Shown piece by piece: positions 9,843-30,380 of a stretch of 40,000 nt of DNA (position 1 is the first letter of the stretch; each line of letters opens with the position of its first letter). A model generated the notes under the pieces. That model searched no databases. It was given only the letters and a program-made list of their open reading frames with translations, and had not been told where the DNA came from. This DNA is from Flavobacteriaceae bacterium PS02334 (GTDB lineage Bacteria; Bacteroidota; Bacteroidia; Flavobacteriales; Flavobacteriaceae), in contig JASCOH010000004.1 of the NCBI GenBank assembly GCA_029959295.1, positions 229,762-269,761 of the forward strand, read 5' to 3'. Position numbers and translations under genes: made by a program.

Positions 9843-9890
9843 CCACCGTAAAGTCACAATAAATAGTATATTTGCCGAAAATTTTATACC

Positions 9891-14479: not shown

Positions 14480-14622
14480 AGTGGAGACAAACTGCGTCAG
14501 TAGCCCCGATTGCAGCGGAAACCCCGGAAACAAAAAAAGCCAGTGTTTTTATTTTAAAGTTTTCAGGAAAAAGCCGTATCGGTTGAATACTAAGCTTTTA
14601 TAGGAATAATCAAAGAAGTCAG

Positions 14623-14638
14623 GTAACGATTTGGTAAC
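14623..14638 (+). repeat. Left copy of the exact 16-bp direct repeat GTAACGATTTGGTAAC (candidate att core)
   Basis: Identical 16-mer at 39781-39796. There is partial flanking similarity (TCAAAG upstream, CTTGCTTTT-AAC downstream). It lies at the core/accessory transition. Confidence 0.4.
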
Positions 14639-14841
14639 GGTGCTTATTACTTTGCTTTTCAACGTGTTTCCGTTCGCTCAAAACAAATATACAAAAGAAT
14701 ATATTACATACCAAAATGATTGAAGTTGGTAAAAATTTAGTAACGTTCCGCTGCTTCTCGTCAGTTGTGAAGTTCGGAACGAATTATTTTCCGTTAAAGA
14801 TAAAAATTCTTGCGAAACGTGAACGTGAATTTACAACAAAA

Positions 14842-14855
14842 CTCGCAATTGCGAG
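14842..14855 (+). other. Palindromic hairpin CTCGCAATTGCGAG, 8 nt upstream of the intron 5' end
   Basis: Perfect 14-nt palindrome. Class C introns are known to home just downstream of stem-loops. Confidence 0.5.
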
Positions 14856-14863
14856 AAACAGAT

Positions 14864-16814
14864 GTGTTTGCCCTGCATCCGCAGGACACACTCTGTAGTG
14901 TCGAAGAAAAATTCGAAAATACAAATTTCGAATTAAGAATCAAACATATGGAGTGTTATTTTTCTAGAAGGTGTAAGTCCTTTATGGGCGGATTAACAAT
15001 TCGAACCATTAGCACGTCGCAAGGTGGTTTATCGTGAGGTATGCACTGAAGGAAGCGAAATGCGAAGCATTCATGAACTCCGATAAAGAGAAAATAAATA
15101 CTTCGTGAATAAACGGCAAAATCCGGTACTGACGAACAGAAATGTCATATGAGGCAAGTTAAAACGGATCAGCGTCCACAGCAACGTAACGTCCCAAGAT
15201 TACCAAAGTTTTAATTTGTAGATGACGCAGGAATTGGAGGAAAGAAAAAGCGGTTACCAGGGGAGGTCTTGACAACTACGAGTTGGTTACGTCAAGAAGT
15301 CAGCAGAAGTCATAGTACTTGTGGCCAACGAGGTGCAAATAGAAATTGCACAGGACTCACTAGCAAGGAAGGACCGAACGCAAAGAGGTTTTCAATGGCT
15401 AAAAGAATTCGCCACGGCGAATAGCTTTAGCTAACGAAAACAGATTGAAACAAAACTAAGATGATTGAACGCGTAGTACATCCTTATCAGCTTGAAAAAG
15501 CATTAAGCCACGTTATTGCCAACAAAGGCAGTGCGGGGGTTGATGGCGTTTCGGTACGTGAAATTTGCAAGATATTCACCGAAAAGAAACAGCAATTTAT
15601 CCAGCAAATTAAAACAGGAAACTATCAAGTGCAACCCATTTTAGGGATTGAAATTCCAAAAGGAAACGGAAAAACCCGATTATTGGGCATTCCTACCACC
15701 ACCGAAAGAGTATGGCAACAAAGTGTGGCACAAAATCTTGCACCACTATTTGAACCCGAATTCAAGCCCAATAGTTATGGATTTAGACCCAATAAAAATG
15801 CCCGACAAGCCGTTGGACAAGCACGGGAATACATCCACCAAGGGTTAAACCACATTGTAGATACCGACTTGAAGAATTTCTTTGACGAAGTGGACCATTG
15901 TTTGTTGCTGAATTTAGTGTACCAAAAAGTAAAGTGCAAAACCACGATGCAACTCCTTCGGAAATGGCTCAAAGCACCCATTAAAATCAACGGAAAACTA
16001 CAAAAACGAAGAAAAGGCGTGCCGCAAGGAAGCCCATTAAGTCCGCTCTTATCCAATATTCTGCTCCATCAATTGGACAAAGAATTGACCAGAAGAGGAC
16101 ACAAATTTGTGCGTTATGCCGATGACTTTAGTATTTATTGCAAAAGCCACAATCAAGCGAAAGCGACTAAAGTTGTTATTGAAAAGTTCCTAAAGAACAA
16201 GCTCAAACTAACCGTCAATCAAGAAAAGAGCGGTGTTCGAAAACCCGTTAACTTCACGATATTAGGCTTTAGTTTTGTGCCTGTTTACAAAAAAGGAAGT
16301 AAAAACCAATACCAACTTGTAGTAGGCGAAAAGGCATGGAAACGCCTAAAGGAACGGCTGAAAAGCATTACCCGAAAAACCACACCAGCAAAATTTGACG
16401 AGCGACTAACCAAGATAAAAGAAGTGCAACGAGGATGGTTAACCTATTTTCGGGGTACCAACATCATGGGGAAATTGCGAGATTTAGACGGCTGGCTTAG
16501 AAATCGACTGCGTTATTGCATTTGGCACGACTGGAAAAAACCTGAAAGAAAGAGGAAAAACCTCATACGATTGGGAATCGACCAAGACCACGCTTATGCT
16601 TGGAGCAGAACTCGAAAAGGCGGTTGGGCAATAGCTCAAAGTCCCATTTTAGGCACAACAATAACCTTACAACGCTTGAAGAAAAGAGGATACTTATCCT
16701 TAACCGAACTTTACATCCAACTCCATCCATCTCTTTGCGAACCGCCGAGTACGTGACCCGTACGCTCGGTGGTGTGAGAGGCTCTCCCTGCTAGTTTCTA
16801 GCGGGGCAGTCTAC
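14864..16814 (+). mobile_element. Group II intron, bacterial class C (IIC), with ORF in domain IV
   Basis: The 5' end is GTGTTTGCCCTGCATCC. GGGGAGGTCT and GAAGTCAGCAGAAGTCATAGTAC (15296-15318) match conserved strings I recall from the Oceanobacillus iheyensis IIC intron. Domain V is GAACCGCCGAGTACGTGACCCGTACGCTCGGTGGT (16739-16773). A domain VI-like stem is CCCTGCTAG/CTAGCGGGG. The 3' end at ..CAGTCTAC (16814) is uncertain by a few nt. Confidence 0.85.
15461..16756 (+). CDS. Group II intron reverse transcriptase/maturase
   Basis: 431 aa with RT motifs GVPQGSPLSPLLSNILL and RYADDFSIYC (YADD) and a maturase X-like RGWLTYF. The last codons overlap domain V. Confidence 0.95.
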   Translation: MIERVVHPYQLEKALSHVIANKGSAGVDGVSVREICKIFTEKKQQFIQQIKTGNYQVQPILGIEIPKGNGKTRLLGIPTTTERVWQQSVAQNLAPLFEPEFKPNSYGFRPNKNARQAVGQAREYIHQGLNHIVDTDLKNFFDEVDHCLLLNLVYQKVKCKTTMQLLRKWLKAPIKINGKLQKRRKGVPQGSPLSPLLSNILLHQLDKELTRRGHKFVRYADDFSIYCKSHNQAKATKVVIEKFLKNKLKLTVNQEKSGVRKPVNFTILGFSFVPVYKKGSKNQYQLVVGEKAWKRLKERLKSITRKTTPAKFDERLTKIKEVQRGWLTYFRGTNIMGKLRDLDGWLRNRLRYCIWHDWKKPERKRKNLIRLGIDQDHAYAWSRTRKGGWAIAQSPILGTTITLQRLKKRGYLSLTELYIQLHPSLCEPPST

Positions 16815-16831
16815 TCGATTGGTGGTAGTTA

Positions 16832-17431
16832 TTATTTTTCAGCAATTGGTAATTTAGAAATTCCTTCTTCAATTTTTTGTATTCCTTCTGGATAGAGTTT
16901 TTTATGATAATACATTTCATTAAAGATTTCACAAAATTTTATAATACTTTCAAAATCATTTTTTTCAATATTTATTTCAATCTCTTTATATGAATTTTGA
17001 AAAAGTTTTATATTCTTATTTTCCCTTGTTTGTTCATCGTCTTCAAAATACTCCCAGGCGAATACGCATAAATCTTCACAACCAACTTTTTCATTGTGAA
17101 TTAGCCAATTGCGAATTTCAAAATCATTTGATTTGATTTTTTTAAATTTTTCTAATTCGACTTGAGTTAAACTTTCATATTTATGAAGTTCTAGTAACTC
17201 CTTTATTTTTTCATAAAAATCACAAAATATGATATTATCTTCAATTCTATATTTATTGCATAATTTCAGTAAATTATCATCTTCATTTTCAAAAGAAATA
17301 TTATAACTATTGCGTGAGCAATAGTTATAAATATTTTCATTTTGTTTCAACCAATTATGTAATTCTGAAATTGGAAATAAAGTATTTGTTCTAAAATATT
17401 CAAGAGCTTTTTGTATTGAGTAAGTTGTCAT
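16832..17431 (-). CDS. Hypothetical protein (cassette gene D)
   Basis: 199 aa, very AT-rich and acidic, with no motif recognised. It lies 22 nt downstream of gene C on the same strand. Confidence 0.6.
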   Translation of the reverse strand: MTTYSIQKALEYFRTNTLFPISELHNWLKQNENIYNYCSRNSYNISFENEDDNLLKLCNKYRIEDNIIFCDFYEKIKELLELHKYESLTQVELEKFKKIKSNDFEIRNWLIHNEKVGCEDLCVFAWEYFEDDEQTRENKNIKLFQNSYKEIEINIEKNDFESIIKFCEIFNEMYYHKKLYPEGIQKIEEGISKLPIAEK

Positions 17432-17453
17432 TATCTTGTCTTGATTAAATTAA

Positions 17454-18719
17454 TCAGTCAATATTCCAATAGTTTTCAGGATCACCTTCAAAAGCTGAAT
17501 TTATTGTGTCATCATCGAAACCATATGCTCCATTATATTCTGAATAACTTCGTCTATCGTATTCATAATCTCCATCATCATAATCTTCATATACTTCTTC
17601 AAAATTTTCATCAAGATAATAACCAAATTTTTCAAAATTTGACTTTATATCTAAATCAAAAAAATAATTATTGAGGTTTTCATCATAACTTACACCATAT
17701 TTTTTCTCGAATTTGATATTGTTTAATGCTAAAGTTTCATTACTGAAATTTAATTTATAATCGATTAAGTTTGGAGCAAATTCAAATATTGTTGAATTCA
17801 ATCTATTAACTGTAATTTTGGATAAAAATTTTAATTTTTCAATTCTTAATAAATGTGGAGGTATAATAAATTTCTCCACATTTTTTATTGCCCAATCTAA
17901 ATAATTAATGTCTGGATTAATTAGATTGGTTTTTTCTGAAACTTCACAATTAAGGCAATCTTTGCGGTTTAATGTTCTTGTGTTGCGGAAATCACATTTT
18001 AGAATTTTTTCTATTAGATTAGAAAAAGATTCTGTTTTTTCTAATTCATTTTCAGCTTGATTCACGTAGAAGTGTTTTTCTATTGCAAAGAAATTTTTTG
18101 TAAGTAATGAATTAAATGGACTATTTCTAACATCGTCGATAGTATTTCTAATTTCGTCTGTTATTTCAAAATAAGGAACTATAATTTTATTATTAAATTC
18201 TTTGTTTTTACAAAAATCAATAATTTCATTTACATAATCTTGTATTAAATTTACCCGATTATATGTAATATTTATTTTTCCTTTTAAAACTTCAAGAATT
18301 GATTTACTTTTATATTTTCCAAAGTTGATTTTTTCTTCACTACTAATGAAACTAGAAATTCTTTTTTCAACAGCCTTTCCGTATTCAAATTTAAGCCACA
18401 AGTAATTTTCATAATAATTTGAAAAATCATCATAAATAGCATTTCCTAACCCAATTTGAATTATTCCCGAAAACCAATCAGCAAAAACAGGTTCATTTGT
18501 TTTAAAAACGTCGTAGTAATTTTGATTTGAAGTTTCTAAATTTGTTATGAATAATTTGTCATCTGTCAATTTCCAATAACCTTGATAACCTCGCCAATGC
18601 GCAGTTGTATGTGCTTCAAATTTTAAATTATTTTTTTCAATAAACGAATTTAAAGGCAAATTACTCATAGAATAATTTTCTCCTCTATATTCAATTATTT
18701 CACTCGCTTGCATTGTCAT
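17454..18719 (-). CDS. Hypothetical protein (cassette gene C) with acidic Tyr/Asp-rich C-terminal tail
   Basis: 421 aa. The N-terminal module has HWRGYQGYWKLTDDKLFITNL. The C-terminus is EEVYEDYDDGDYEYDRRSYSEYNGAYGFDDDTINSAFEGDPENYWNID. No enzymatic motif was seen. Confidence 0.65.
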   Translation of the reverse strand: MTMQASEIIEYRGENYSMSNLPLNSFIEKNNLKFEAHTTAHWRGYQGYWKLTDDKLFITNLETSNQNYYDVFKTNEPVFADWFSGIIQIGLGNAIYDDFSNYYENYLWLKFEYGKAVEKRISSFISSEEKINFGKYKSKSILEVLKGKINITYNRVNLIQDYVNEIIDFCKNKEFNNKIIVPYFEITDEIRNTIDDVRNSPFNSLLTKNFFAIEKHFYVNQAENELEKTESFSNLIEKILKCDFRNTRTLNRKDCLNCEVSEKTNLINPDINYLDWAIKNVEKFIIPPHLLRIEKLKFLSKITVNRLNSTIFEFAPNLIDYKLNFSNETLALNNIKFEKKYGVSYDENLNNYFFDLDIKSNFEKFGYYLDENFEEVYEDYDDGDYEYDRRSYSEYNGAYGFDDDTINSAFEGDPENYWNID

Positions 18720-18769
18720 AATTTCTCTCTATTTTGTCTATTTGCGCAATTTCGGCTACAATTACCACC

Positions 18770-20492
18770 AACGTCAGTCTGTGAAAAAACCGCCGTTTTA
18801 GTACCTCCAAATATAAAAAACTATTTGCATAAAAACAGGAATATTCGTATTTTTAAAGATGCAACACATCACCGGAATTTCCCGTAACCAAATGACCTTC
18901 TCTAGTTTAGATGAGCACATTGCTACTGCTAATCCCACCCGGTTTATCGATGCTTTTGTAGAGCATATTGATTTAAAATCATTAGGTTTTGAAGTGCAGA
19001 CTCTAAAAACAGAAGGCCGTCCGAGTTTTGATACCAAAATTTTTCTCAAGCTTTATCTTTATGGTTATCTCAATGGGCTTCGAAGTTCGCGAAAATTAGA
19101 GAAAGAATTTGTCCGAAATATAGAAATGCAATGGCTCTTGTGCGGGCTGGTTCCCAACTACCACAGCATATCTGACTTTAGGAAAAACAACCCTTTGGGA
19201 TTAAAAAAGCTATTTAAACTTTTTGTCTCATTTTTGAAAGATGCCGATCTCGTTGCAGGCGAAACCATCGCCATCGACGGTACCAAATCCCGAGCCCACA
19301 ACAGTAAGAAAGCCAATTTCAACCAAAAGAAAATCGATAAGCATCTGGCTTACATCGAAGAAAAAACACAGCACTACTTAGAGGAATTGGCCCAAAACGA
19401 TCAAAACGATTCAGGCATTAGCATCAGCAAAATCCAAGAAAAAATAGAGCGACTCAAGACCAATAAAATCCGATACGAACTCTTGGAAGAAAAACGCCAA
19501 GCCAGCGGTGAACCCCAAATCAGCACGACCGATCAAGATGCGCGAGCCTTGCTGGTTCAAGGCCAGGTGGTGGAAGTGAGCTATAACATTCAGGCAGCGG
19601 TGGACAGCAAGCACAATCTGGTTGTAGCCACGCACACCATCAACCGAAACGACCGAAATGCCCTGACGGCGATTGCCTTGGAGACCAAAGAAAACTTACA
19701 AGTAGAAACTTTTACTGTTTTGGTCGATAAAGGCTACCACAACGGACGCGAAATCAGCCAATGTAAAAACCATAACATTACCACGATTGTGGCGCATCCC
19801 GATCAGGGAATAAGTAATGAAAACGGTACTACAAAAGCCTATTTGGTAGCTCAATTTCTGTACGACAAAGCATCCGATACCTACACCTGTCCGATGAACC
19901 AAACCCTAAAAACCACCGGAACCTGGCACAAGAAAACCAGAGACAAGGACAGCTATGACTTTAAAAAATACCGAACGCCAGCCTGCAAGGAATGTCCAGC
20001 AAAATCGCACTGTACCAGCAGAAAAGGCGGTCGGGAAATTGACCGGAGCCAGTATGCCGATGCCGTAGAAGAAAACAACAGGCGCTACCAAGAAAACCAG
20101 CAGCTGTACCGCAAACGCCAAGAAATCAACGAGCATATCTTTGGCACTATCAAGCGCCAATGGGGCTACAACCACACCAACTTAACAGGGCTCGAAAAAG
20201 TAAACGGAGAACACAGCCTGATTATGCTGGTGTACAACATCAAGCGTACGATAAATATTTTGGGCATACCCGATCTGATGGCCCGATTTAAGAATTGGAA
20301 ATCGCCTTACAAAACAAAGGCGTGTCTTCTTTTTAAGACGATCCTTTTAAAGCTCTTTCCAAGTCATTTTGAAATCCAATTCTATTTTGTTGCTTAAAAA
20401 ACAGCCTTCCTTACAAGAGATTTATGCAAGCATCAGAAAGCTCTTTGTGAGTTAAAAATGTGAAAAAGGGAGTTTTTTCACAGCCTGACGTT
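18770..20492 (+). mobile_element. IS1182-family insertion sequence
   Basis: The terminal inverted repeats are AACGTCAGTCTGTGAAAAAAC (18770-18790) and the reverse complement of GTTTTTTCACAGCCTGACGTT (20472-20492), matching 20/21. The outer ACGT is palindromic, so it may be a 4-bp target duplication instead (IS then 18775-20487). There is a single transposase ORF. Confidence 0.85.
18859..20397 (+). CDS. IS1182-family DDE transposase
   Basis: 512 aa. The N-terminus GRPSFDTKIFLKLYLYGYLNGLRSSRKLEKEFVRNIEMQWLL is typical of IS1182/IS5-like transposases. It also has VLVDKGYHNG and a C-terminal Cys cluster CPMN...CKECPAKSHC. Confidence 0.9.
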   Translation: MQHITGISRNQMTFSSLDEHIATANPTRFIDAFVEHIDLKSLGFEVQTLKTEGRPSFDTKIFLKLYLYGYLNGLRSSRKLEKEFVRNIEMQWLLCGLVPNYHSISDFRKNNPLGLKKLFKLFVSFLKDADLVAGETIAIDGTKSRAHNSKKANFNQKKIDKHLAYIEEKTQHYLEELAQNDQNDSGISISKIQEKIERLKTNKIRYELLEEKRQASGEPQISTTDQDARALLVQGQVVEVSYNIQAAVDSKHNLVVATHTINRNDRNALTAIALETKENLQVETFTVLVDKGYHNGREISQCKNHNITTIVAHPDQGISNENGTTKAYLVAQFLYDKASDTYTCPMNQTLKTTGTWHKKTRDKDSYDFKKYRTPACKECPAKSHCTSRKGGREIDRSQYADAVEENNRRYQENQQLYRKRQEINEHIFGTIKRQWGYNHTNLTGLEKVNGEHSLIMLVYNIKRTINILGIPDLMARFKNWKSPYKTKACLLFKTILLKLFPSHFEIQFYFVA

Positions 20493-20614
20493 TTGGCGCT
20501 TGGCGAAGGTGGCGATTTTCACCACAAATGTTGATGCGGAGAACCAAACTTTGATTAACCACAAAACTGTCTGCGGAGCACTGAACCGCCACTTTTGCCA
20601 AACGCCTGTTATGC
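20488..20614. repeat. 127-bp structured repeat, copy A (right terminus GTTATGC)
   Basis: 120/127 identical to 21431-21557 with no indels. It has 20-nt inverted arms (GGCGCTTGGCGAAGGTGGCG / CGCCACTTTTGCCAAACGCC) and an internal tandem word ACCACAAA..TGCGGAG x2. The left edge abuts the IS. Confidence 0.9.
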
Positions 20615-20621
20615 CCAGTTT

Positions 20622-21071
20622 TTATTTTTCTGTCCAATATTTTTCTTTTAAATATTCTGTTTTTTGAATGTCGCAACCTAATACAAATACTCTGTAAACT
20701 GGTCTGTCTGGTCCGTAATAGGGTATTTTGTCTTCAAAAAATTCTGTTTTTATTTTCTGTAATTCACTTTTCAGGTCATTGATTTTATTTAGGTCTGTCG
20801 AAAAACCTATGCAATGAGTTTTTGCCCATTTGTCAGATTTAATTTGATTAAAAGCATACTCAATTATTTCAGGTTCAGACTTGAAGTATTTCAAATTGTT
20901 TTTTTGTCCACGTTCAGTATAATACCAAATAAAAAGTCCGCCCGAATTGTCAATTCCATAACCTTCATAAATACTGTTTCCGTTTATCGAATAACTGTTG
21001 AAATTTAAGCAATTTTCTTTCATCCATTTTTCAAGTTCACTTTCTGTCCTTGGTAAATAGTTGCTATCCAT
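20622..21071 (-). CDS. Hypothetical protein (cassette gene B), immunity-protein-like size and composition
   Basis: 149 aa with no recognised motif. Its start overlaps the stop of the upstream gene by 8 nt (ATGGATAG). Confidence 0.65.
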   Translation of the reverse strand: MDSNYLPRTESELEKWMKENCLNFNSYSINGNSIYEGYGIDNSGGLFIWYYTERGQKNNLKYFKSEPEIIEYAFNQIKSDKWAKTHCIGFSTDLNKINDLKSELQKIKTEFFEDKIPYYGPDRPVYRVFVLGCDIQKTEYLKEKYWTEK

Positions 21072-21429
21072 TTGTCAGTTTTTTATGGGTGAATGCTCGC
21101 AACTCAATTTCAGCTTTTAGTTTTTCAAATTCGTTGTCAAAATATAATTTAAAGAAGTGTTTTACATTTTCCCAGTTGTCAAGTTTAGTTTGAATTTGCT
21201 CGTCTTGATTTTCTCCATAAACAAAAAATAGGTCGAGGTTTTTGTGAACTTCAAGAACAAATTCGTTTTCCATATGTCCAACCCAAAATGCTCCGTGTTC
21301 TTCGTCCATTCGGATTGTTTCTTCTATTGCGTTTTTTATGTCTTCAAATGTTGCGTTCTCAACAGAGTCGCCCCAACCTTTTTCTATCCAAAAGTTTGTT
21401 GTCATACGTGTCGTCTTAAAATTGGGCAT
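21064..21429 (-). CDS. Hypothetical protein (cassette gene A)
   Basis: Track ORF 21064..21507 runs into repeat B. The likely start is Met at 21429 (MPNFKTTR..) or 21405 (MTTNFWIEKGW..). It is small and acidic with no motif. Confidence 0.6.
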   Translation of the reverse strand: MPNFKTTRMTTNFWIEKGWGDSVENATFEDIKNAIEETIRMDEEHGAFWVGHMENEFVLEVHKNLDLFFVYGENQDEQIQTKLDNWENVKHFFKLYFDNEFEKLKAEIELRAFTHKKLTNG

Positions 21430-21557
21430 AACGTTTTGCGGCTTGGCGAAGGTGGCGATTTTTACCACAAATGTTGATGCGGAGAACCAAACTTTGATTA
21501 ACCACAAATGTGTCTGCGGAGCACTGAACCGCCACTTTTGCCAAACCGCTGTTATGC
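21426..21557. repeat. 127-bp structured repeat, copy B, with both terminal heptamers (GCATAAC ... GTTATGC)
   Basis: GCATAAC is at 21426-21432 and GTTATGC at 21551-21557. The arms 21438-21457 and 21530-21549 pair with 17 Watson-Crick pairs, 2 G-T pairs and 1 mismatch. Confidence 0.9.
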
Positions 21558-21708
21558 GTTCGCCCTTCTTTTCCTGTAATAGTTTTAGTATCCAATATTG
21601 ATGTCTTTTTTAGGTAATATTAAATACAAAAAGCAGACTTCAAAGATAAATAACATCTTCAAAATCCGCTTAAAAAGTAATGAAATTTGTCTATTTAGGT
21701 TAGATTTT

Positions 21709-21872
21709 TTCAGCAATGGGAAAGTCAATTTCAAACTCTGTCAAGTTGTGTAAATAGTTGCTGATAATTTTATCGCCAACAACTATTATTACATCTATCA
21801 TATTGGCTTCGTTGTAACCTGCTCCAAAAAATGCTTCTCTGCTTTCTTCGTTTGCACGTCCACGGTTTTTAT
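21709..21872 (-). pseudogene. 5'-truncated remnant of a second AhpD-like (carboxymuconolactone decarboxylase family) gene
   Basis: About 164 bp at roughly 90% identity to the 3' end of 22519..23067, including the stop. It translates to ..RGRANEESREAFFGAGYNEANMIDVIIVVGDKIISNYLHNLTEFEIDFPIAEKI* with no N-terminal part. Confidence 0.8.
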
Positions 21873-21997
21873 TGCAGTAATTTTTCTATTTTTAAAAGAA
21901 TAATTGTTTCGGTAATATTACAATTGCCCCCTCGGTAAAAACGCCTTTTTTGATGTAAAAATATAAACCAGAGCGTTTATACTGAGGGGATAAAAGA

Positions 21998-22432
21998 CTA
22001 CTTTTCTTCCAAACCTGCTTCATTATAAACCACCATCAACGAAATACCCAATGCCATAATATCTTTCAAAACAAAAAAGTCTGTAGTGGGTACACCATCA
22101 ATTATTTTATTAATACCTGGCGTTGTCAATAAAAAACTTAGAGTTGTGCCAAAAATAACGACTGCTGCCCAGCCAAATATTTTTCCAACTTGGGGTTTAA
22201 ATAAACTCCAAATTAAACCAATACCTACAATGATTTCGAAAAGCCCAATGATATTTGAAACGACTTGAACGCTCAACACTTTGTACATCCACGACATCAA
22301 AAAGTGGTTTTCAACGTAAGGTTTTATGAATACAGCTTCCGATGGTGTGAATTTAAAAAAACCAATCCAAAGTAATACAACGACGACACCTGAAACGGCT
22401 ATTTTATAGCCTAACTTATTTATTTTACTCAT
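21998..22432 (-). CDS. DUF417 / RclC(YkgB)-like inner-membrane protein
   Basis: 144 aa. WIGFFKFTPSEAVFIKPYVENHFLMSWMY, TLSFLLTTPG and VLKDIMALG parallel the E. coli RclC sequence as I recall it. Confidence 0.7.
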   Translation of the reverse strand: MSKINKLGYKIAVSGVVVVLLWIGFFKFTPSEAVFIKPYVENHFLMSWMYKVLSVQVVSNIIGLFEIIVGIGLIWSLFKPQVGKIFGWAAVVIFGTTLSFLLTTPGINKIIDGVPTTDFFVLKDIMALGISLMVVYNEAGLEEK

Positions 22433-22518
22433 TTTATTTATTTTTAAAAGAATTGTAATTGAAAAAATTGGGGTGATTGCTTAGAGAAAAATACGTTTTA
22501 TTTTTACGCTTCAACCAA

Positions 22519-23067
22519 TTATAATTTTTCTGCAACAGGAAAGTCAATTTCAAACTCTGTCAAGTTGTGTAAATAATTGCTAATAATTTTATCGCCAACA
22601 ACTATTATTACATCTATCATATTGGCTTCGCTGTAACCTGCTCCAAAAAATGCTTCTTTGCTTTCTTCGGTTGCACGTCCACGATTTTCAACTGCTGATG
22701 CTGTGAATTTCGCTAAAGCGTCTAACTTACTGTCGAAACTTGCTGTTCCTTTACGAATTTCTAAAATTTGTTCGTCTGAAAAACCATTCATTTTTCCTAA
22801 TGCTGTGTGAGCCGATTGGCAATAACGACAACCATTAATTTGACTTGTTACCAAGTTTATCACTTCTCTTTCTTTGGCTCTTAATGTGCTTTTTCGATTT
22901 TGAAGCGTTAAATAGTCGCCTAATGCTGTTTCATTTTTAGCGAAATAGGCATACAAATTAGGAACAAAACCTAAACCTTTTTGGAGGTTGTCAAACATAC
23001 CTTGATTGTTTGCAGATACTTCTTCTCTTGTTGGAACCGTGTAAGTTCTTTTTTCTGATGTTGTCAT
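22519..23067 (-). CDS. AhpD-like alkylhydroperoxidase / carboxymuconolactone decarboxylase family protein
   Basis: 182 aa with the CxxC-H motif INGCRYCQSAH, which is typical of the AhpD core. Confidence 0.8.
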   Translation of the reverse strand: MTTSEKRTYTVPTREEVSANNQGMFDNLQKGLGFVPNLYAYFAKNETALGDYLTLQNRKSTLRAKEREVINLVTSQINGCRYCQSAHTALGKMNGFSDEQILEIRKGTASFDSKLDALAKFTASAVENRGRATEESKEAFFGAGYSEANMIDVIIVVGDKIISNYLHNLTEFEIDFPVAEKL

Positions 23068-23170
23068 TTTATTATTTTTTAAATATTGTTTGTCTTTATT
23101 GACGATACAAAGGTGCGATGACTTACAATAGATAAAAATGATGTAGTTTAGGAAATTTGGTTGATGTAGT

Positions 23171-23755
23171 TCAACTTTTCTTTGAAACCCTTTTATTTCT
23201 TATTCTGGATAAAAATTCATTCGTCATTCCTAAATAAGAAGCTAAAGCATATTGAGGAACTCTTTGCACGATTTGAGGATATTTATTTGAAAAAGTTTCG
23301 TAGCGTTCTTCGGCTGTTTGGGTTAGGTTTGAAATTATTCTTCTCTGTTGAGCAGCAAGTCCTCGTTCTGCCATTATCCTAAAAAAAGTTTCAAATTTGT
23401 GATTTTGTAATTTTAGTTCTTGTTCTTTTTCATAGTCAAGTTGTAAAATTATGCTGTCTTCTAATGCAACCACAAACATTGTCGCAGGTTGTTGAAAAAT
23501 ATAGCTGTTATAATCTGTAATCCACCAGTCATCAATGGCAAAAGTAATTGTGTGTTCTTGCCCTTCATCAGCCACAAAATAAGCCCTAAATGCTCCTTGC
23601 AAAACATAGTGTCTGTGCTTGGCTATAAAGTTTGGTTGAACTATGAATTGTCGTTTTTTAATTTTTTCTTCTTTGAAACAAGAACTAAAAAGCTTCTTTT
23701 CTTCTTCTGTCAGTTTTACAAACTTGTCAATATATGAAGTTATTTTGTTTGTCAT
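23171..23755 (-). CDS. Crp/Fnr-family transcriptional regulator
   Basis: 194 aa with an N-terminal cNMP-binding-like beta-roll and a C-terminal HTH (QYALASYLGMTNEFLSRIRNK). Confidence 0.8.
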   Translation of the reverse strand: MTNKITSYIDKFVKLTEEEKKLFSSCFKEEKIKKRQFIVQPNFIAKHRHYVLQGAFRAYFVADEGQEHTITFAIDDWWITDYNSYIFQQPATMFVVALEDSIILQLDYEKEQELKLQNHKFETFFRIMAERGLAAQQRRIISNLTQTAEERYETFSNKYPQIVQRVPQYALASYLGMTNEFLSRIRNKRVSKKS

Positions 23756-23898
23756 TTAGTCTAATGTTGATGATTAGTAGTGTCGCTCATAGGGTGACGC
23801 ATAACGCACAAATATCCGAAAGTTTTAATAAACACACAAATTAAACATCTATCAATACGTCAGTAACTTATGATTTTATATATTTGCAGATATTCAAA

Positions 23899-25002
23899 AT
23901 GCGAAGCTATATGGATACTCAAAATACGAACCCCGAATTTAATCCTTCTCTTTTTAAAATTACTTTAGGAACACATCGGGGAAAGAAAGTGATTTGGTTA
24001 AAATTTAATTATGATAAACTCTTAATTGAAATATTGCGACAGCACACCAAAGCACATTGGTCGCAATTGGAAAAAACTTGGTACGTGGTTGATAATCTGC
24101 ATAACAGAAATCTTTGCGGTATTCAGCCCGATATTGTGGGAAAAGATATGCTGTGCAAAATATCTGCATCCAACTTGCCCGAGTTTCAAAAATACCAAAA
24201 CATACTTACTCTCAAAAGCTTATCGCCGAATACCATCCGCACCTATTCCATTGAGTTTGCCCAATTATTATATTTGCTTAAAGATTTTCCTGTACAGGAA
24301 CTTTCACCCGAAAGACTGCAAAGCTATTTCTTATACTGTTTCAAAGAACTGAAACTTTCCGAAAACCAAATCCACAGCAGGATAAATGCAATAAAGTTCT
24401 ACTACGAAAAAGTTTTGCATCGTAAAAAAATGTTTCTTGACATTCCACGCCCCAAAAAACCTTTGCTTTTGCCCAAATCACTGAACATTGAAGATGTAAA
24501 AAAGCTTTTTTCAGTAACCGAAAATATCAAACACCGGCTTATTCTGCAACTCTGTTACGGAATGGGCTTGCGTGTAAGCGAAATCGTGAACCTGAAAATT
24601 GAAGACATCGACAGTCGGAATATGAAAGTACTCATTCACAGGGGCAAAGGCAAAAAGGACAGATATGTCAACCTGCCACATTCAGTATTGGAAGATTTAC
24701 GGAATTATTATAAAGAATATCTTCCGAAAGACTTCCTTTTTGAGGGACAGTATGGTGGACAATATACCGTACGAAGTTCACAGCTTGTTTTCAAAAAGGC
24801 AATGAAAAAGGCAAAAATAAACAAAAACATAGGCATTCACGGATTGAGGCACAGCTATGCAACACATCTTTTGGAATTTGGCACAGACATTAGTTTTATC
24901 CAAAAGCTTTTGGGGCATAACGATATCCGTACCACACAAATTTATGCCAGGGCTTCGGACACATCGATTGCTAAAGTCGTTTCTCCTTTGGATAGGATAT
25001 GA
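23899..25002 (+). CDS. Tyrosine recombinase, IntI/XerD-like (SAM_4-type N-domain) with extra N-terminal domain
   Basis: Track ORF begins at TTG 23884; ATG at 23899 is preferred. The catalytic set is GLRVSE (R), HGLRHSYATHLL (HxxR) and LGHNDIRTTQIYARA (Y). The core-binding region is NTIRTYSIEFAQLL. The C-terminus VVSPLDRI resembles that of IntI1. Confidence 0.85.
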   Translation: MRSYMDTQNTNPEFNPSLFKITLGTHRGKKVIWLKFNYDKLLIEILRQHTKAHWSQLEKTWYVVDNLHNRNLCGIQPDIVGKDMLCKISASNLPEFQKYQNILTLKSLSPNTIRTYSIEFAQLLYLLKDFPVQELSPERLQSYFLYCFKELKLSENQIHSRINAIKFYYEKVLHRKKMFLDIPRPKKPLLLPKSLNIEDVKKLFSVTENIKHRLILQLCYGMGLRVSEIVNLKIEDIDSRNMKVLIHRGKGKKDRYVNLPHSVLEDLRNYYKEYLPKDFLFEGQYGGQYTVRSSQLVFKKAMKKAKINKNIGIHGLRHSYATHLLEFGTDISFIQKLLGHNDIRTTQIYARASDTSIAKVVSPLDRI

Positions 25003-25079: not shown

Positions 25080-26336
25080 TTATCTAGGGTAATATTTTTT
25101 CTTCTTAATCTGATTAGCAAACACTTCTTCCTCGTAATCTTCTCCCTGTGCATCAGGTAGCAAACTGAATAATCCTAAATCAGAACTATCTGAATGCTCA
25201 ATTGAAATAATTTCAAATAGGTCTTTTGTCGGCAGATTGTCTATCGTATTCGTACTAGAAGGGCTATTCTGCATTTTTAACTCGGGCTTATTTCCATTGT
25301 CCCACCATTCGTTAAAGACATTTGCTGACAGGTTTCTATCCAAAGCTGAACCGTTCCAAACACTACGGCTTTCGTGGTCAATAAAGGTCATTCCGTAAAT
25401 TCGTCCTTCATTATTACGTCTTACAACCGTATTGATGCCCTGTTCTGCAAGTTGCTTTTTAAATTCCGTTTCGTTCTTTGTGGTATGTATAGCCAATTCA
25501 ATTGTATTCTTTAGGACAGACCTTGCAGGGTTGGTTTTCATTTTCTCTTTGGATTGTTCAAAATGTTTTTGAAGCTGTACCACACCTGCATCTTTTCCGA
25601 AAAGCGATGCCTTGAACGGATTACTTACTTTGTTCCTTTTTTCGTCCAACGCTACATACACCAATCCGTTTACGGTCTGACCGTTCCGCTCTCCTTTGAC
25701 TTCTTCCGCTGTGATACTGAAAAGGAAAAGTAACGCATTGTAACTACCTATAGTAGAATAGCTATAATACTTTGGTAGATGCCGTACTACCGAAGCAATC
25801 TGACTTTTGATGTCGCCATTTTTATGATTTACAGGCTTAAAAACTTTATTAGTTTGTTTCTGTTCCTGCTCGATGGCTTTGTTCAGGTTATATTTCGTTT
25901 CCAAATCCCGACAGATTGCCATTGAACGTGGGTGGTCGTAATCATCGGGGATTTTCTTTCCGTCAATTTCCACGCAGGTCGAAACGATATGGATATGCGT
26001 GCGGTCTATATCGGTATGCTTGAAAACAATATAGGGCTGATTGCCGTACCTCATACGTTCCATATATTCCTGTGCCATATCCGCAAACTGCTGGTCGCTG
26101 ACCTTATCCGCAGGATCTGGGTTCAGCGATATATGCCTTACCGTCTTTTCTGTTTTGATATTGGCAGACAGATACGGCTCAAAACATTTGTTGAAATATT
26201 GGGAAGAATACCTGCCGTCCACCGTATCAGGTATCTTATTTAGCAACAGAACCGCTCCGTTTTCCTTTTCCACTTTCTGCTGATTGTACAGAATTGCCCC
26301 GTACATATTGCTTCCTTTTCCAATTTTTGCAATCAT
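25080..26336 (-). CDS. Relaxase/mobilization nuclease (MobB-type of Bacteroidota mobilizable elements)
   Basis: 418 aa with N-terminal MIAKIGKGSNMYGAILYN, HISLNP and the His-triad HTDIDRTHIHIV. Confidence 0.9.
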   Translation of the reverse strand: MIAKIGKGSNMYGAILYNQQKVEKENGAVLLLNKIPDTVDGRYSSQYFNKCFEPYLSANIKTEKTVRHISLNPDPADKVSDQQFADMAQEYMERMRYGNQPYIVFKHTDIDRTHIHIVSTCVEIDGKKIPDDYDHPRSMAICRDLETKYNLNKAIEQEQKQTNKVFKPVNHKNGDIKSQIASVVRHLPKYYSYSTIGSYNALLFLFSITAEEVKGERNGQTVNGLVYVALDEKRNKVSNPFKASLFGKDAGVVQLQKHFEQSKEKMKTNPARSVLKNTIELAIHTTKNETEFKKQLAEQGINTVVRRNNEGRIYGMTFIDHESRSVWNGSALDRNLSANVFNEWWDNGNKPELKMQNSPSSTNTIDNLPTKDLFEIISIEHSDSSDLGLFSLLPDAQGEDYEEEVFANQIKKKKYYPR

Positions 26337-26340
26337 TTTT

Positions 26341-26775
26341 CTACTCTTTTTTCAGGTATTTCTTTTCAAATTCTGAGCTTAGGGCAACAACTTTCAGCAA
26401 CAATTCTTTCATTTCTATTGTCTGTTTTTCCAATTTATAGAAGTATGCAGATGCTTTCTTATCCGAAAAGTTTGTGTTCAACAGCTTTACAATCTGATTG
26501 TAATTGGTTGCTATCCCTCTGAATTGGCTAAAAAATCGGGTCAGCCCTTCGTGGTATTCTACTGCATCCATATTAATTTTGACGGTCTTTAATGTCTTCT
26601 GAAAGATGCAAGCCGTAATGAAATGTGCCGTTACTTTCATTCCCGACTGGTCAAAAAGGGCAAGGAATTTGGCATTGTCCTCGTCATTCAGGTTAAAGGA
26701 ATACCGATGTACCGCAGGGTCAATCTTTGGTTTTCTCCCTGTTTTCCTAATCTGTTTTCTGTCATTCTCTTCCAT
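26341..26775 (-). CDS. MobC-like relaxosome accessory protein (MobA of Bacteroides nomenclature)
   Basis: 144 aa with the GIATNYNQIVKLLN motif (MobC NxNQ signature). It lies 4 nt upstream of the relaxase. Confidence 0.8.
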   Translation of the reverse strand: MEENDRKQIRKTGRKPKIDPAVHRYSFNLNDEDNAKFLALFDQSGMKVTAHFITACIFQKTLKTVKINMDAVEYHEGLTRFFSQFRGIATNYNQIVKLLNTNFSDKKASAYFYKLEKQTIEMKELLLKVVALSSEFEKKYLKKE

Positions 26776-26846
26776 AATAATCCATTTTAATTTTTAAACA
26801 AACGGGCGACTTCGGAGCCGTTTCCAGCCCCCTGCAAGGGCAAGTG

Positions 26847-26885
26847 CTTTTGAGGTGCCGAAATTCATTTCGAGTACCTCAAAAG
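26847..26885. other. Nested hairpin, candidate oriT or transcript-end structure upstream of mobC-like gene
   Basis: CTTTTGAGGTGC-CGAAAT-TC-ATTTCG-AGTACCTCAAAAG, with outer stem 11/12 and inner stem 6/6. A second palindrome ATCCGTTTT-G-AAAACGGAT is at 26915-26933. Confidence 0.4.
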
Positions 26886-27325
26886 ATAACTTGCTCTGAA
26901 CAGGAGTTCAGAAAATCCGTTTTGAAAACGGATTGGAGTTAGCCGGGAAATCCCATCGATTCTATTACAAATTTCGGTAAGACTGTTTGAATAACAGTCA
27001 TTTATAGTCACGTCAATGAACGACAAATAGTTCCTCTGAATGCCACCACAATGCATATTGGGACTGCTTTAATTTCCTTTGTATATGGCTAGCTGGCTGA
27101 TTGGTTATATCCTTAGTTAGTTAACTAATTAGCATAAAGTCCGACAGTAAATCATCATAATTGATTGCAAGCGAATTGCAAATTTTTCAGTTAATGAAAC
27201 AGCTAATTATGGGTATGCAGTTGCATAAGTAAATAGATAGGTAGTTACATAGTTACAATAGTATATATAACTGGCTGTTCAGCTAACCAGTCAGCTAATT
27301 TGTGATAACATTAATAACAACAGAT

Positions 27326-27817
27326 ATGATACACGAAGAAAACAAAAATCAGCAACCCGAAACAGAGGGTTTTATAGAAAATTTCCTAACTGATAAGAAG
27401 AAGGAACCTTCCACAGGACAACAGGCGTTAAAGCATCGGGAAGACTTTGCCAAACCCCAAGTGGATGAGGAAGCGATCATGCGTGTAATGGCAGGTGAAG
27501 AACCTGCGGAAACTGAAACGGAACGCAAAAGACCGTCCGTTAACAATACTAAAAAAAGTAATTCACAGCCAAAGAAGCTGACCCAAGAAGATTACTGTGG
27601 ACAGTTCTTTAAAATCCCTACAACAACGGCAAGCAGGGGCAAATCGGTCTATGTACGGCAGGAACACCACGAAACGTTCAACAGACTTACCAATATTATG
27701 GGCATTGACAAACTCACCATTTATGCATATTTGGATAATATTATCGAATACCATTTTCGGGAGTTCGGGGAATTGATTAAAGAAATCTATAACGAAAAGC
27801 ACAAACCCTTGTTTTGA
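27326..27817 (+). CDS. DUF3408-like protein of Bacteroidota mobile elements
   Basis: Track ORF begins at GTG 27302; ATG 27326 is preferred. The C-terminal KSVYVRQEHHETFNRLTNIMGIDKLTIYAYLDNIIEYHF matches my recollection of the DUF3408 pattern. It is divergent from the mob genes. Confidence 0.7.
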   Translation: MIHEENKNQQPETEGFIENFLTDKKKEPSTGQQALKHREDFAKPQVDEEAIMRVMAGEEPAETETERKRPSVNNTKKSNSQPKKLTQEDYCGQFFKIPTTTASRGKSVYVRQEHHETFNRLTNIMGIDKLTIYAYLDNIIEYHFREFGELIKEIYNEKHKPLF

Positions 27818-27959
27818 CAATTACTTGTGTCTGCAAAAAGAATAGCAGAATATTTTGGATATTCTGCTGAAAAGCCATTGAACGCCAAACAGTACCGCTG
27901 ACAGCTACTTTGGACAAATGCTTCGCTATCAGGATTAATTTCCCGAAAAGCGAAAAATT

Positions 27960-28631
27960 ATGCTACACAAAGAAACGGTCAGCAAAGAAATGTGGGAACT
28001 TCTCCAAAGGCTGATGAAAGATGAAATACTGAAAGATTTTAATCTCGTTGGCGGAACTTCGCTAAGTCTTCAGATCGGCCACCGATTAAGCATCGATATA
28101 GATCTGTTCACTACAAAAGGCTTTGACGAACAAGCCCTGTTGAAAGATTTAGCCAATAAGTATCCGATAAGGATAAGGGATATGTTTGATAATACAATCC
28201 TGCTAGATATAGATAAGGTAAAAGTAGATATTCTCGCCCACCAATATCCTTGGCAAAAGCCCATTGAAACAATAGAAGGGGTACGGTTAGCTTCTCTAGA
28301 GGACATAGGGGCAATGAAACTTCACGCGATCTTTCAAAATGGTACACGGATAAAGGATTTCATTGATATGTACTTTCTCCTAGAACATCATCCGCTTACG
28401 ATCTATCTGGAATCTTATCGGAACAAGTATGGTGGCAATCCTGCTATGGCTTCATACGCTTTATTGCATCATAAAAATATAGATAAGGAAGTAAAAGTTA
28501 ATATGTTGAAAGGAAAAGAAGTTGATATGAAAAAGGTTGCTGAGCGATTGACAAAAGCTGTCTATAATCCAACGCTCAAATTCGGAGAAAGACCAGATCC
28601 GCCTAATAAAGGCAGAGGTTTTAAGCGCTGA
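27960..28631 (+). CDS. AbiEii/AbiGii-family nucleotidyltransferase (type IV TA toxin-like)
   Basis: 223 aa with the signature LVGGTSLSLQIGHRLSIDIDLF. Confidence 0.8.
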   Translation: MLHKETVSKEMWELLQRLMKDEILKDFNLVGGTSLSLQIGHRLSIDIDLFTTKGFDEQALLKDLANKYPIRIRDMFDNTILLDIDKVKVDILAHQYPWQKPIETIEGVRLASLEDIGAMKLHAIFQNGTRIKDFIDMYFLLEHHPLTIYLESYRNKYGGNPAMASYALLHHKNIDKEVKVNMLKGKEVDMKKVAERLTKAVYNPTLKFGERPDPPNKGRGFKR

Positions 28632-28670
28632 TATAATGAGTAACAGCTAAAAAAATCGTATCTTTATTGT

Positions 28671-28988
28671 ATGGAATTAAGAGGACAAAATAAAAACATT
28701 CCAAATCTTGACCCTGTCTTTTTTTGGGATTTCGATATTGATGCAATGGACTTTATGAAAGCCCATAAGACCATTATTGCCCGAATTATCGAACGTGGCG
28801 GTCAGGAAGAGATTGATGAAATTATCCGTTTTTATGGGTATAGCAAAGTAGTCACGGCTATCCGTGACGAAATCTACTTCCTGCCCAATTATGCTATTGA
28901 CAAAGCGCTGAAATTCTTTTCCGAACTTAAAAAGGAAGAAATGTACTGTTACCTGAACCGTAAGGGCAAGCCCTATCATTGGATATAA
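28671..28988 (+). CDS. Small protein, DUF6922-like (partner of Bacteroidota AbiEii-type NTases)
   Basis: 105 aa. LDPVFFWDFDIDAMDFMKAHKTIIARIIERGGQEEIDEIIRFYG resembles the domain I recall next to such NTases. The assignment is from memory only. Confidence 0.5.
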   Translation: MELRGQNKNIPNLDPVFFWDFDIDAMDFMKAHKTIIARIIERGGQEEIDEIIRFYGYSKVVTAIRDEIYFLPNYAIDKALKFFSELKKEEMYCYLNRKGKPYHWI

Positions 28989-29675
28989 AAATCCAATACT
29001 AAAAGCGGTGTTCTTTTTGCTTCTTTTTCTTGCTCCGCAAATTCTCCAAGAAAAAGAAGTCACGGCTAACCGATAAAGGGCAAACAAAATACCCTATCCC
29101 TCTAAAGATTGCATATAGCCGTAAAATTCTCAAAAAAATGTTTCCAAAAGAAAAAAACAAGAAAAAAAGAAAGCAGATAAACGGGAAGGGCAATGCAGAG
29201 CCAAAAGGAAACGGAATAAGTCCCGAAGGGTGAAAAAGAAAAAAATATTTGGCGAAGCTTTTTTCTTTTTCATTATGCCGTAAGCTTTTGGCTGGCCGTT
29301 GTGTGGGATGCCCTTCCCAACTTAGCTGTCTTTTTATCTGTTTATTTGGAAACCTATCTTTACTAACAGTTCCGCTTATGAAAAGCGGAATAGATTTCAT
29401 TTATAAATGATCTGGCTTTAAAAGCCACAGAAAGGATAACGGAAAATACTTTTGGGTATGTGGATGGGGTATTTTTTGTTTTGCTTTCTACAATATCCGT
29501 ACAAAACTTTTTAATTTGCCGAGGAGGAAGCGTCGGTAAATTAAAGTGTTTTGAGGATAAAAATCTGGTTATAATACTCTTATCTGGTAATTGCACGCCA
29601 AATACTACCTCTGGATGCAAGATTATAATGACTGATATAAGTAACCTATATTTTTGAAGTTTAAATTGCAAAAAT

Positions 29676-29972
29676 ATGGACGTAGCAGTTTTAGATATTC
29701 AGATTTTAAAAGCACTGTATAGGGAAGTAAAGGAAGTTTCCAATTTGATTGCGGAAATTACTGCACCCTACAAAGCACTTCAACAGGCAACGAAATGGCT
29801 TGACGGGCAGGAAGCCTGCCAATTGCTCAATATCAGCAAGCGAACGTTGCAAACGTACAGAACAAAAGGTGTTCTCGGGGCAACCCAAATCAATCGTAAG
29901 AATTATTTCAAACTGACTGATGTGGAATTGCTGATGCAGACAGAGCAACCATTAAAAAAGCGAAAGAAATGA
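29676..29972 (+). CDS. HTH_17 (MerR/excisionase-like) DNA-binding protein
   Basis: 98 aa with WLDGQEACQLLNISKRTLQTYRTKGVL. Confidence 0.8.
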   Translation: MDVAVLDIQILKALYREVKEVSNLIAEITAPYKALQQATKWLDGQEACQLLNISKRTLQTYRTKGVLGATQINRKNYFKLTDVELLMQTEQPLKKRKK

Positions 29973-30250: not shown

Positions 30251-30300
30251 CCGATTAAATCAAAATGAATACTAAAAAATTATAGCTTTATCAGTCAATT

Positions 30301-30341
30301 AAAATTCAGCTCATTGCTTAAAAACAATGAGCTGAATTTTT
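30301..30341. terminator. Bidirectional terminator between convergent HTH_17 and DUF262 genes
   Basis: 15-bp perfect stem AAATTCAGCTCATTG / CAATGAGCTGAATTT with T/A runs on both sides. Confidence 0.8.
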
Positions 30342-30380
30342 GTTATGCTATTTTCGAATAAATTATGCAAGTATCAATAA

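Follow-up and report, generated by a model that had tools for sequence, protein, structure and literature searches.

Two structured repeats in a gene array beside a tyrosine recombinase

The window analyzed here, a stretch of 40,000 nucleotides (nt) from contig JASCOH010000004.1 of Flavobacteriaceae bacterium PS02334 (GenBank assembly GCA_029959295.1, positions 229,762 to 269,761 of the forward strand), contains a gene for a tyrosine recombinase and, divergent from it, an array of minus-strand genes that includes two copies (A and B) of a structured repeat. Reading leftward from the recombinase, the array consists of genes for a Crp-like regulator, a CMD/AhpD-like protein and a DUF417 protein, repeat B, two small open reading frames (ORFs), repeat A, an insertion sequence (IS), two low-GC ORFs and a group II intron (Table 1). 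An earlier reading made from the sequence alone (the sequence-only reading) had compared the repeats to the attC sites of integrons, a view now supported by independent sequences. We conclude that the repeats are very probably attC-type recombination sites and belong to an integron-like cassette platform with a wide distribution in Bacteroidota.

Table 1. Features of the array, its insertion site and its flank (window positions; ↓ marks a crossover or exchange point here and in the text; R1 is the covariance model described below)
Feature	Position	Strand	Details
Conserved distal flank	14546..14744	+	98.5-99.5% identity in three genomes; homology stops at TTTAGTAA↓C
Third attC, degenerate	14735..14863	+	Left terminus ATTTAGTAAC and body (14745-14863); distal end of the array
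Group II intron	~14864..16819	+	Reverse transcriptase/maturase 15461-16756; Rfam RF02001, 94.7 bits; Pfam RVT_1 and GIIM
Cassette 3, gene part	16820..18772	-	Low-GC ORFs 17454-18719 and 16832-17431; GC 25-28%
IS, 1717 bp	18773..20489	+	Transposase 18859-20397, Pfam DDE_Tnp_1_6 and DUF772; inverted-repeat analysis
attC A (copy A), body and right end	20490..20614	+	R1 102.7 bits
Cassette 2, 942 bp	20490..21431	-	26-nt leader, ORFs 21064-21405 and 20622-21071, then attC A
attC B (copy B), short class	21426..21557	+	Crossover 21431/21432 (TAA↓C); R1 110.8 bits, E 4.5e-20
Cassette 1, 2373 bp	21432..23804	-	Ends with attC B; Pfam for genes
DUF417 gene, cassette 1	21998-22432	-	Pfam
CMD/AhpD-like gene, cassette 1	22519-23067	-	Pfam
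Crp-like regulator, cassette 1	23171-23755	-	Pfam
attI-like insertion site	23805..23935	+	Crossover between 23804 and 23805 (...GCATAA↓C)
Tyrosine recombinase, 363 aa	23911..25002	+	Pfam PF13495 and PF00589; Xer/IntI-like; divergent from the minus-strand array genes

The two copies are direct repeats of 132 nt (20483-20614 and 21426-21557) with 93% identity and form the second-longest repeat family of the window; chance is far too weak to account for two such copies inside 40 kb. Over the 127 nt compared in the sequence-only reading (20488-20614 versus 21431-21557), exactly the seven mismatches it had counted are present, without indels. Four of these seven are the coupled swaps it had described, GGCG to GCGG in the left arm and CGCC to CCGC in the right arm, by which two base pairs are exchanged and pairing is retained. 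The inverted arms reported near the ends correspond in both copies to a stem of ~19 bp, composed of 4 bp, a C·A mismatch, 5 bp, a GAAG/TTTT segment with two G·T wobbles, and 6 bp. Copy B indeed carries the proposed cap GCATAAC...GTTATGC, which closes its stem further, and the interior word ACCACAAA-N6-TGCGGAG was found twice as described. The GCCTGAC at the left of copy A does not belong to the repeat and is the right terminal inverted repeat of the IS at 18773-20489. The original left terminus of attC A is TACCACCAAC at 18763-18772, cut off from the body of the site by this IS.

Folded as single-stranded DNA, the plus strand of copy B reaches -29.0 kcal/mol (z -3.7) and the minus strand -22.4 kcal/mol; the better-folding plus strand is antisense to the cassette genes. 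No target duplications are seen around copies A and B. A scan of the window at Rfam gathering scores gave no family for the repeats, and its sole match was the group II intron RF02001.

According to the sequence-only reading, each repeat precedes a two-gene cassette on the coding strand. This is right in position, since two minus-strand ORFs do follow, and wrong in function: a site comes after its own genes, and each repeat therefore belongs to the cassette upstream of it. With this assignment the platform of the window comprises three cassettes with matching termini. Those of cassette 1, GTTATGCGTT (21551) and GACGCATAAC (23796), are reverse complements at 9/10 positions, and those of cassette 2, GTTATGCCCA (20608) and TGGGCATAAC (21423), at 10/10. 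Cassette 3 runs from 18771 to ATTGGTGGTA (16818), and its bounds, TACCACCAAC (18763) and ATTGGTGGTA, match at 9/10 positions and lie where expected.

Exchange points, cassette termini and the site family

The recombinases of loci L001-L004 and of genome locus L008 (Flavobacterium erciyesense) are 99% identical to that of the window. The DNA upstream of the recombinase gene in the window, L001 and L002-4 is identical up to AAC↓GCACAAATATCC; beyond this point the three arrays continue with GCATAAC, GTACAAC and GCACAAC, respectively, and then with unrelated genes. On the distal side, the similarity of the window to L001 and L008 is confined to the flank listed in Table 1. Homology thus breaks at ...YAA↓C at both ends, between 23804 and 23805 and at 14744. 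The attI side is common to the window and L001, its motif recurs in L008, and all three have the distal flank of 200 bp. Between these fixed points the window carries three gene units, L001 two others (an ANT-type adenylyltransferase gene and a CMD-DUF1348-AraC unit) and L008 yet others. Because the flanks are conserved and the gene content varies, we regard these loci as one platform with different cargo and with exchange points at AAC. The first cassette of L001, from a Flavobacterium metagenome bin (9002-9862), encodes an adenylyltransferase of PF04439, to which the aminoglycoside 6-adenylyltransferases belong.

The attI-like site contains three direct repeats of the motif CAAA(T)ATRCGAA (CAAATATACGAA repeats) at 23809-23820, 23893-23906 and 23918-23931, which corresponds to +11, ~+95 and ~+120 from the crossover; the third overlaps the first codons of the recombinase gene (MDTQNT). 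The same offsets occur in L005, L009, L010, L011, L013, L015 and L036. Judging from their sequence and placement, these repeats may be recombinase-binding or autoregulatory sites. The RCGAAG part of the repeat resembles the GGCGAAG box of the attC stem. In more than 20 loci, the attI junction predicted from the terminus of the last attC could be located, 105-190 nt upstream of the recombinase start and invariably before nCnCAAATATACGMA; the attI motif is present in 48 of 72 loci. At least nine loci (L032, L043, L044, L053, L058, L075, L081, L085 and L086) show a second architecture: here, the recombinase stop is followed after 100-330 nt by the attI motif, on the opposite strand, and then by the array, with recombinase and cassettes co-directional.

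The termini of the sites follow a simple rule. For neighboring sites, the right ten bases of the first (GTTR and six more) are the reverse complement of the left ten of the second (six and YAAC). Among 40 neighboring pairs, the hexamer matches at 6/6 positions in 28 and at 5/6 in 10, with a mean of 5.6, compared with means of 2.85 for the two ends of one site and 2.38 for random pairs. With 38 of the 40 pairs at 5-6/6, the boundaries obey the integron cassette rule. Since the complementarity joins neighboring sites and not the two ends of one site, each gene unit bears matched inverted termini, and the mobile unit is TTRnnnnnn, the genes, nnnnnnYAA and the site body from C to G. Such complementarity is purposeful only if both ends pair in the folded strand of a circular cassette; homologous recombination between sites would not yield it.

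To place the repeats in a wider family, we scanned one genome per species, which returned at least 580 relatives of the recombinase, and kept 80 loci. Nearly all relatives are from Bacteroidota (Flavobacteriales, Chitinophagales, Cytophagales, Sphingobacteriales and Bacteroidales), with a few from metagenome bins labeled otherwise. A 73%-identical recombinase, P0010 (L005-7), adjoins at least eight repeats of ~190 nt between small co-oriented ORFs. These repeats have the ...TAAC/GTTA... ends, the boxes TTGGCGAAG and TTTTGCCAA and the stem layout in common with those of the window; the stem bases beside the boxes differ between the two in complementary fashion.

We aligned 23 sites, scored them against a hand-specified structure and built a covariance model, R1. 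In this set, 85.9% of the cells are paired versus 72.1% in shuffles (a value reached by 0 of 500) and 40-47% with slid partners, and the covariation score is 0.304 versus 0.102 in shuffles. The distal stem has no unpaired cell at all and shows 5-10 double changes per pair. The box columns are invariant in these 23 sites because the seeds were chosen by regular expression. R1 then retrieved 74 unique related sites from the 80 genome loci, the window and the contig loci. In this larger set, the pairs of the central and distal stems are 92-100% paired with many pair types, and the formerly "invariant" box positions covary too; one pair, for example, is G-C in 39 sites, T-A in 27, A-T in 3 and C-G in 2. 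One G·T wobble is nearly invariant (72 of 74 sites), where the complementary strand would carry a C·A mismatch, and the C·A mismatch of the stem occurs in 36 of 74. The strong covariation of the stems in 23 and then in 74 sites bears out the claim of selection on a folded structure.

In the 80 genome loci, R1 gave 63 non-overlapping matches. Of these, 55 are located upstream of the recombinase on the plus strand and eight, from four loci with a mirror arrangement, downstream on the minus strand, the latter being explained by the co-directional second architecture. None was found upstream on the minus strand or downstream on the plus strand, with 607 kb searched downstream and 350 kb upstream of the recombinases. 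All 63 matches hence fall into two recombinase-linked arrangements, in agreement with the linkage and co-orientation proposed earlier. Neither a lack of covariation in the arms nor a scatter with target duplications as in miniature inverted-repeat transposable elements (MITEs), the two observations that had been named as fatal to the proposal, was encountered within these loci. Short and long site classes of 60-85% identity are mixed in one array. Further site classes with other stem sequences, e.g., GGCTATGAT..., occur where the terminus rule predicts a site (L022 at 4308, L061 at 6009, L082 at 8730 and L045 at 9637). Because R1 misses such classes or scores them weakly, the number of arrays is a lower bound.

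The two strands of the sites are not equivalent. With DNA folding parameters, the modeled strand, antisense to the genes, is the more stable one in 63 of 74 sites (mean difference 2.4 kcal/mol, Wilcoxon p 1.5e-11). Neighboring sites are separated by a median spacer of 931 bp, and in 35 of 41 cassettes the longest ORF between them lies on the strand opposite the folding strand; in at least two of the six exceptions, the ORF has its stop codon within the site.

Recombinase, inserted elements and related sites on resistance plasmids

By sequence, the recombinase passes neither the XerA nor the integron-integrase cut-off. Among NCBIfam models it scores 198 bits with XerA_Arch (cut-off 220), 178 with the integron integrase model TIGR02249 (265) and 116 with NF011946 (435). 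The HMMER alignment to VchIntIA (2a3v) splits, with residues 201-248 of IntI lacking a counterpart, and the AlphaFold (AF2) model (pLDDT 79.7) has only a short loop, residues 271-286, in place of the IntI insertion. The model contains in addition an N-terminal beta-beta-alpha-beta-beta-alpha domain of ~90 amino acids. In a Foldseek search with this model, VchIntIA is the top match (E 9e-15) and XerA the next, and the C-terminal tail SPLD (SPLDRI) aligns with the terminal SPLSRL of VchIntIA. The family alignment (A2) shows no variation in the catalytic arginine, the two histidines or the tyrosine. The link to integron logic drawn by the sequence-only reading therefore holds for the sites and fails for the recombinase as a canonical integron integrase. 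Because the enzyme is without the insertion that defines IntI and stays below the IntI family thresholds, we call the system integron-like rather than a canonical integron.

No additional attC was found within cassette 1, even when R1 was run with filters off. A 170-bp copy of the 3′ end of the CMD gene (21700-21869 versus 22519-22688, 94% identity) is located 819 bp downstream of that gene. The two copies of the 3′ end bracket the DUF417 gene, which looks like an insertion or duplication. Pfam, NCBIfam and PADLOC assigned no function to the four small or low-GC ORFs of cassettes 2 and 3.

Two of the sites are interrupted by other elements. The IS, with terminal inverted repeats GTCAGTCTGTGAAAAAACC and GGGAGTTTTTTCACAGCCTGAC, has entered attC A precisely at the AAC↓GTT crossover point, and no target duplication is visible. 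A related IS end, TTTCACATCCTGAC (L035, 81-94), occurs at the same position of a different short-class attC, and together these insertions suggest an IS family that targets cassette sites. We also considered the G↓TCAGGC to the left of copy A, which is found in L035 as well, as an ancestral right half of attI, and ruled this out because it is the terminal repeat of the IS. The group II intron interrupts the right-hand end box of the third attC and is oriented antisense to the cassette genes; its 5′ end GTGTTTGCCC and 3′ end ...CTACTCGAT were read by eye, so that its exact boundaries are inferred.

The platform lies ~200 bp inside the left end of a larger element. To the left of 14546 the flanks differ among the three genomes, and the conserved flank 14546-14744 probably represents the left end of the mobile carrier. 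Right of the recombinase we found genes for a relaxase, MobC, DUF3408, AbiEii, two HTH_17 and two GmrSD proteins, and a second integrase of the CTnDOT type (38418-39668). Judged by this gene set (25080-39668), the carrier is an integrative mobilizable element.

Sites of the same family are also present on plasmids. By blastn, the long-class site was found on plasmids of Riemerella (6), Empedobacter (6), Myroides, Bacteroides, Sphingobacterium and Chryseobacterium, and on one IncC plasmid of Salmonella. On the Riemerella plasmids pRA0511 (L088) and CP072192.1 (L089), R1 detects 4 and 9 sites, in each case on a single strand, which separate tet(X), catB, estT, erm(F), ere(D), blaOXA and a MarR gene; of 11 neighboring pairs, 10 obey the terminus rule at 9-10 of 10 positions. 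On a plasmid of Bacteroides xylanisolvens, sites separate tet(X2), ere(D), aadS and OXA-347. CP072214.1 (L091) and OQ658822.1 (L090) were surveyed as further plasmid loci. The ere(D) and tet(X) cassettes have different neighbors in Riemerella and Bacteroides, and each homology block has one end within 3-6 nt of the predicted crossover. The Salmonella IncC plasmid carries one site beside an ere(D) fragment.

No member of the recombinase family is annotated on pRA0511 or CP072192.1, and tblastn of PLSDB with the recombinase returned relatives at no more than 49% identity. A chromosomal homologue in Riemerella anatipestifer (L021 and L024, 10001-11071, 62% identical) is neighbored by acyl-CoA dehydrogenase/CoA transferase genes on one side and ssb/gyrB on the other. 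We considered it as a partner of the plasmid arrays, but no tie could be made. On Acinetobacter indicus plasmid pFS42-2-1 (L092, 5088-7060), tet(X3) is preceded at 190 bp by a truncated relative of the recombinase (45-47% identical) that points in the same direction. The junction reads GGCACATAA↓C, and of a short-class attC the right half remains downstream. By this arrangement, tet(X3) resembles the leading cassette of a platform that was captured.

Interpretation and comparison with known systems

The cassette boundaries, the conserved flanks around variable content, the linkage and co-orientation of sites and recombinase genes, the covariation and the strand asymmetry are established. The platform is made up of a tyrosine recombinase gene, the adjacent attI and a cassette array; in each cassette, a short leader precedes one to three genes, and a structured site of 130 to 200 nt comes last. 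We propose the following mechanism. Of the two strands, the one antisense to the cassette genes would fold as a long imperfect hairpin, in which the site ends nnnnnnYAAC and GTTRnnnnnn pair to give one recombinase-binding box; a second would be formed by the conserved TTGGCGAAG/TTTTGCCAA stem, in which the G·T wobbles lie. The recombinase encoded at 23911-25002 would be the catalyst and would cleave the antisense strand of this single-stranded substrate at AA↓C; exchange with attI would then insert a cassette, and exchange with another attC would excise it as a circle.

A number of observations weigh against this interpretation. The recombinase has no I2 insertion, and this IntI-specific insertion is deemed necessary for recombination of folded attC sites in the integron literature (PMC9668308, PMC8138268 and PMC7790495). 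About 60 nt in the interior of the short-class sites are unpaired and contain direct repeats. The third attC is the best R1 match besides A and B, with filters off, at only 13.1 bits (14733-14877, plus strand, E 0.11), and its reconstruction with the exons joined gives no single long hairpin, for which reason we keep it as degenerate only. R1 detects arrays in 32 of the 80 loci, and no attI motif, repeats or R1 matches are present within 10 kb of the chromosomal homologue of R. anatipestifer. Apparent conservation is inflated in two ways: the seeds were selected by the regular expression GGCGAAG...TTTTGCC, and alignment A4 is fitted to the model.

Of the alternatives, the most serious retains the cassette system but lets it recombine as duplex DNA at a short core around AAC↓GTT, with the hairpin serving in termination, cassette protection or binding of an accessory protein. 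The closeness of the recombinase to XerA-type enzymes by sequence, its missing I2 insertion, the resemblance of attI to a duplex site with direct repeats, and the interior direct repeats of the short class, which are unable to pair, all agree with such a scheme. We nevertheless consider it unlikely. The cassette-side arm of the supposed core is a variable hexamer and thus not a sequence-specific duplex binding site, and this hexamer is complementary to a partner 130-200 nt away, which is relevant only in a folded strand. The stem covariation, the nearly invariant G·T wobble and the strand asymmetry likewise favor folding.

A canonical integron, in which a true IntI acts on attC sites that standard tools would recognize as such, is in our view very improbable. 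The layout is the same, with a divergent recombinase, attI and co-oriented cassettes that are each followed by a palindromic AAC...GTT site, and both the structural match to VchIntIA and the shared C-terminal tail point in this direction. Against it stand the scores below both integron-integrase cut-offs, the absence of the 201-248 region, and stems that have their own boxes and no conserved bulged bases. Moreover, a survey with IntegronFinder 2.0 reported for Bacteroidetes only lone integrases and one complete integron, in Salinibacter (PMC9024848).

A structured RNA unrelated to recombination (a leader, terminator or antisense RNA) is hardly credible. Covariation by itself cannot separate RNA from DNA, and G·U pairs are typical for RNA, but no Rfam family was matched, the better-folding strand is antisense to the genes, the sites coincide with the exact points at which gene content changes in otherwise identical elements, and complementary termini specific to each cassette have no RNA rationale. 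Generic repetitive extragenic palindromic (REP) or MITE-like repeats, between which homologous recombination shuffles genes, can practically be dismissed: copies A and B are, at 94% identity, similar enough to support it, yet all 63 matches in the genome loci conform to one of the two recombinase-linked arrangements, site classes of 60-85% identity share one array, the junction with attI is exact in spite of its lack of homology to the sites, and there are no target-site duplications. Scatter, mixed orientation and independence of a recombinase, as expected of MITE or REP elements, were not observed within the 80 loci.

We think it slightly more probable than not that Bacteroidota, a phylum considered nearly free of integrons, own a widespread integron-type lineage that recombines hairpin sites without I2, the domain seen as the key innovation for this chemistry, and that this lineage is the native source of mobilized tet(X) variants, ere(D), catB, aadS, estT and OXA-347, including tet(X3) with its truncated "xerD" on Acinetobacter plasmids. 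On Riemerella and Bacteroides plasmids, R1 detects the same sites as flanks of tet(X), ere(D), erm(F), catB, estT, aadS and class D beta-lactamase genes. The arrays probably escape standard integron detection, and the cassette content of Bacteroidota from gut, soil and marine habitats is therefore likely to be uncatalogued.

The prevailing view of integrons holds that recombination of folded single-stranded sites arose once, when a Xer-like enzyme gained the I2 helix. A second cassette system without I2, if true, would represent either an independent solution or a surviving earlier stage, and the question of origin would become experimentally testable. A full-text literature search, outside whose reach most subscription journals lie, found no published description of the system. 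A 2024 preprint cites Bacteroidota as an example of clades "previously found without any integrons" (10.1101/2024.07.02.601686).

[quoted passage not shown] Cassette 2 of the window, with its 26-nt leader and 132-nt site, resembles the aph(3′)-IVb unit in geometry. The platform offers a mechanism for such homology-independent, site-specific acquisition of resistance genes in this species.

Among known systems, Xer/dif (archaeal XerA, the pdif modules of Acinetobacter) is related through the enzyme, which is as near to XerA as to any family and has a simple two-domain core. A dif site is a duplex of ~28 bp with two recombinase arms around a center of 6-8 bp, and pdif sites alternate in orientation. 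No such duplex is present here. Instead, the sites are structured, 130-200 nt long, directly oriented and one per gene unit, one arm is a variable hexamer, and there is a dedicated attI with arrays of up to 8 or more cassettes.

Attachment sites of classical integrons are the targets of IS1111-attC insertion sequences and group IIC-attC introns. The elements of our arrays recall this behavior: the IS of the window at the attC A crossover, the antisense group II intron in the end box of the third attC, and the IS end in L035. The transposase of the window IS, however, is a DDE enzyme and not of the IS110 family.

From classical integrons themselves, the system is set apart by its enzyme, which is without the IntI-specific domain (I2 helix and patch III), fails the IntI thresholds and has an extra beta-rich domain at the N-terminus. 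The sites differ in having their own boxes, in the nearly invariant G·T wobble and the C·A mismatch that replace conserved extrahelical bases, in an asymmetric spacer of the end boxes (5-8 nt versus 1-3 nt) and in interior direct repeats or an extra hairpin, and attI differs by its three direct repeats of a 12-nt motif. The organization, in contrast, is that of an integron. The recombinase gene adjoins an attI at which the first cassette is joined, as documented by three arrays that diverge at AAC↓ and by more than 20 loci. The cassettes are co-oriented and mostly promoterless units of 0.4-5 kb that end in an imperfect palindrome of their own (at least 8 sites in L005; 35 of 41 ORFs opposite the folding strand). 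Compared with the consensus RYYYAAC/GTTRRRY, the AAC/GTT of the site ends, within which the crossover falls, is essentially invariant and the purine/pyrimidine pattern loosely kept. As in integrons, a cassette begins with bases complementary to the start of its own site, and the strand antisense to the genes folds better. In classical integrons, extrahelical bases and an unpaired central spacer set the choice of strand, the bottom strand of attC recombines as folded single-stranded DNA, and a Pc promoter in or near intI drives the cassettes; for the sites described here, covariation, strand asymmetry and the long-range complementary termini support a folded substrate indirectly, and promoters of Bacteroidota deviate from the sigma-70 consensus. 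The superintegron of Vibrio cholerae is characterized by VCR repeats of 123-129 nt, and in the same manner the sites within an array studied here are alike in length and sequence and serve as insertion points for an IS and a group II intron.

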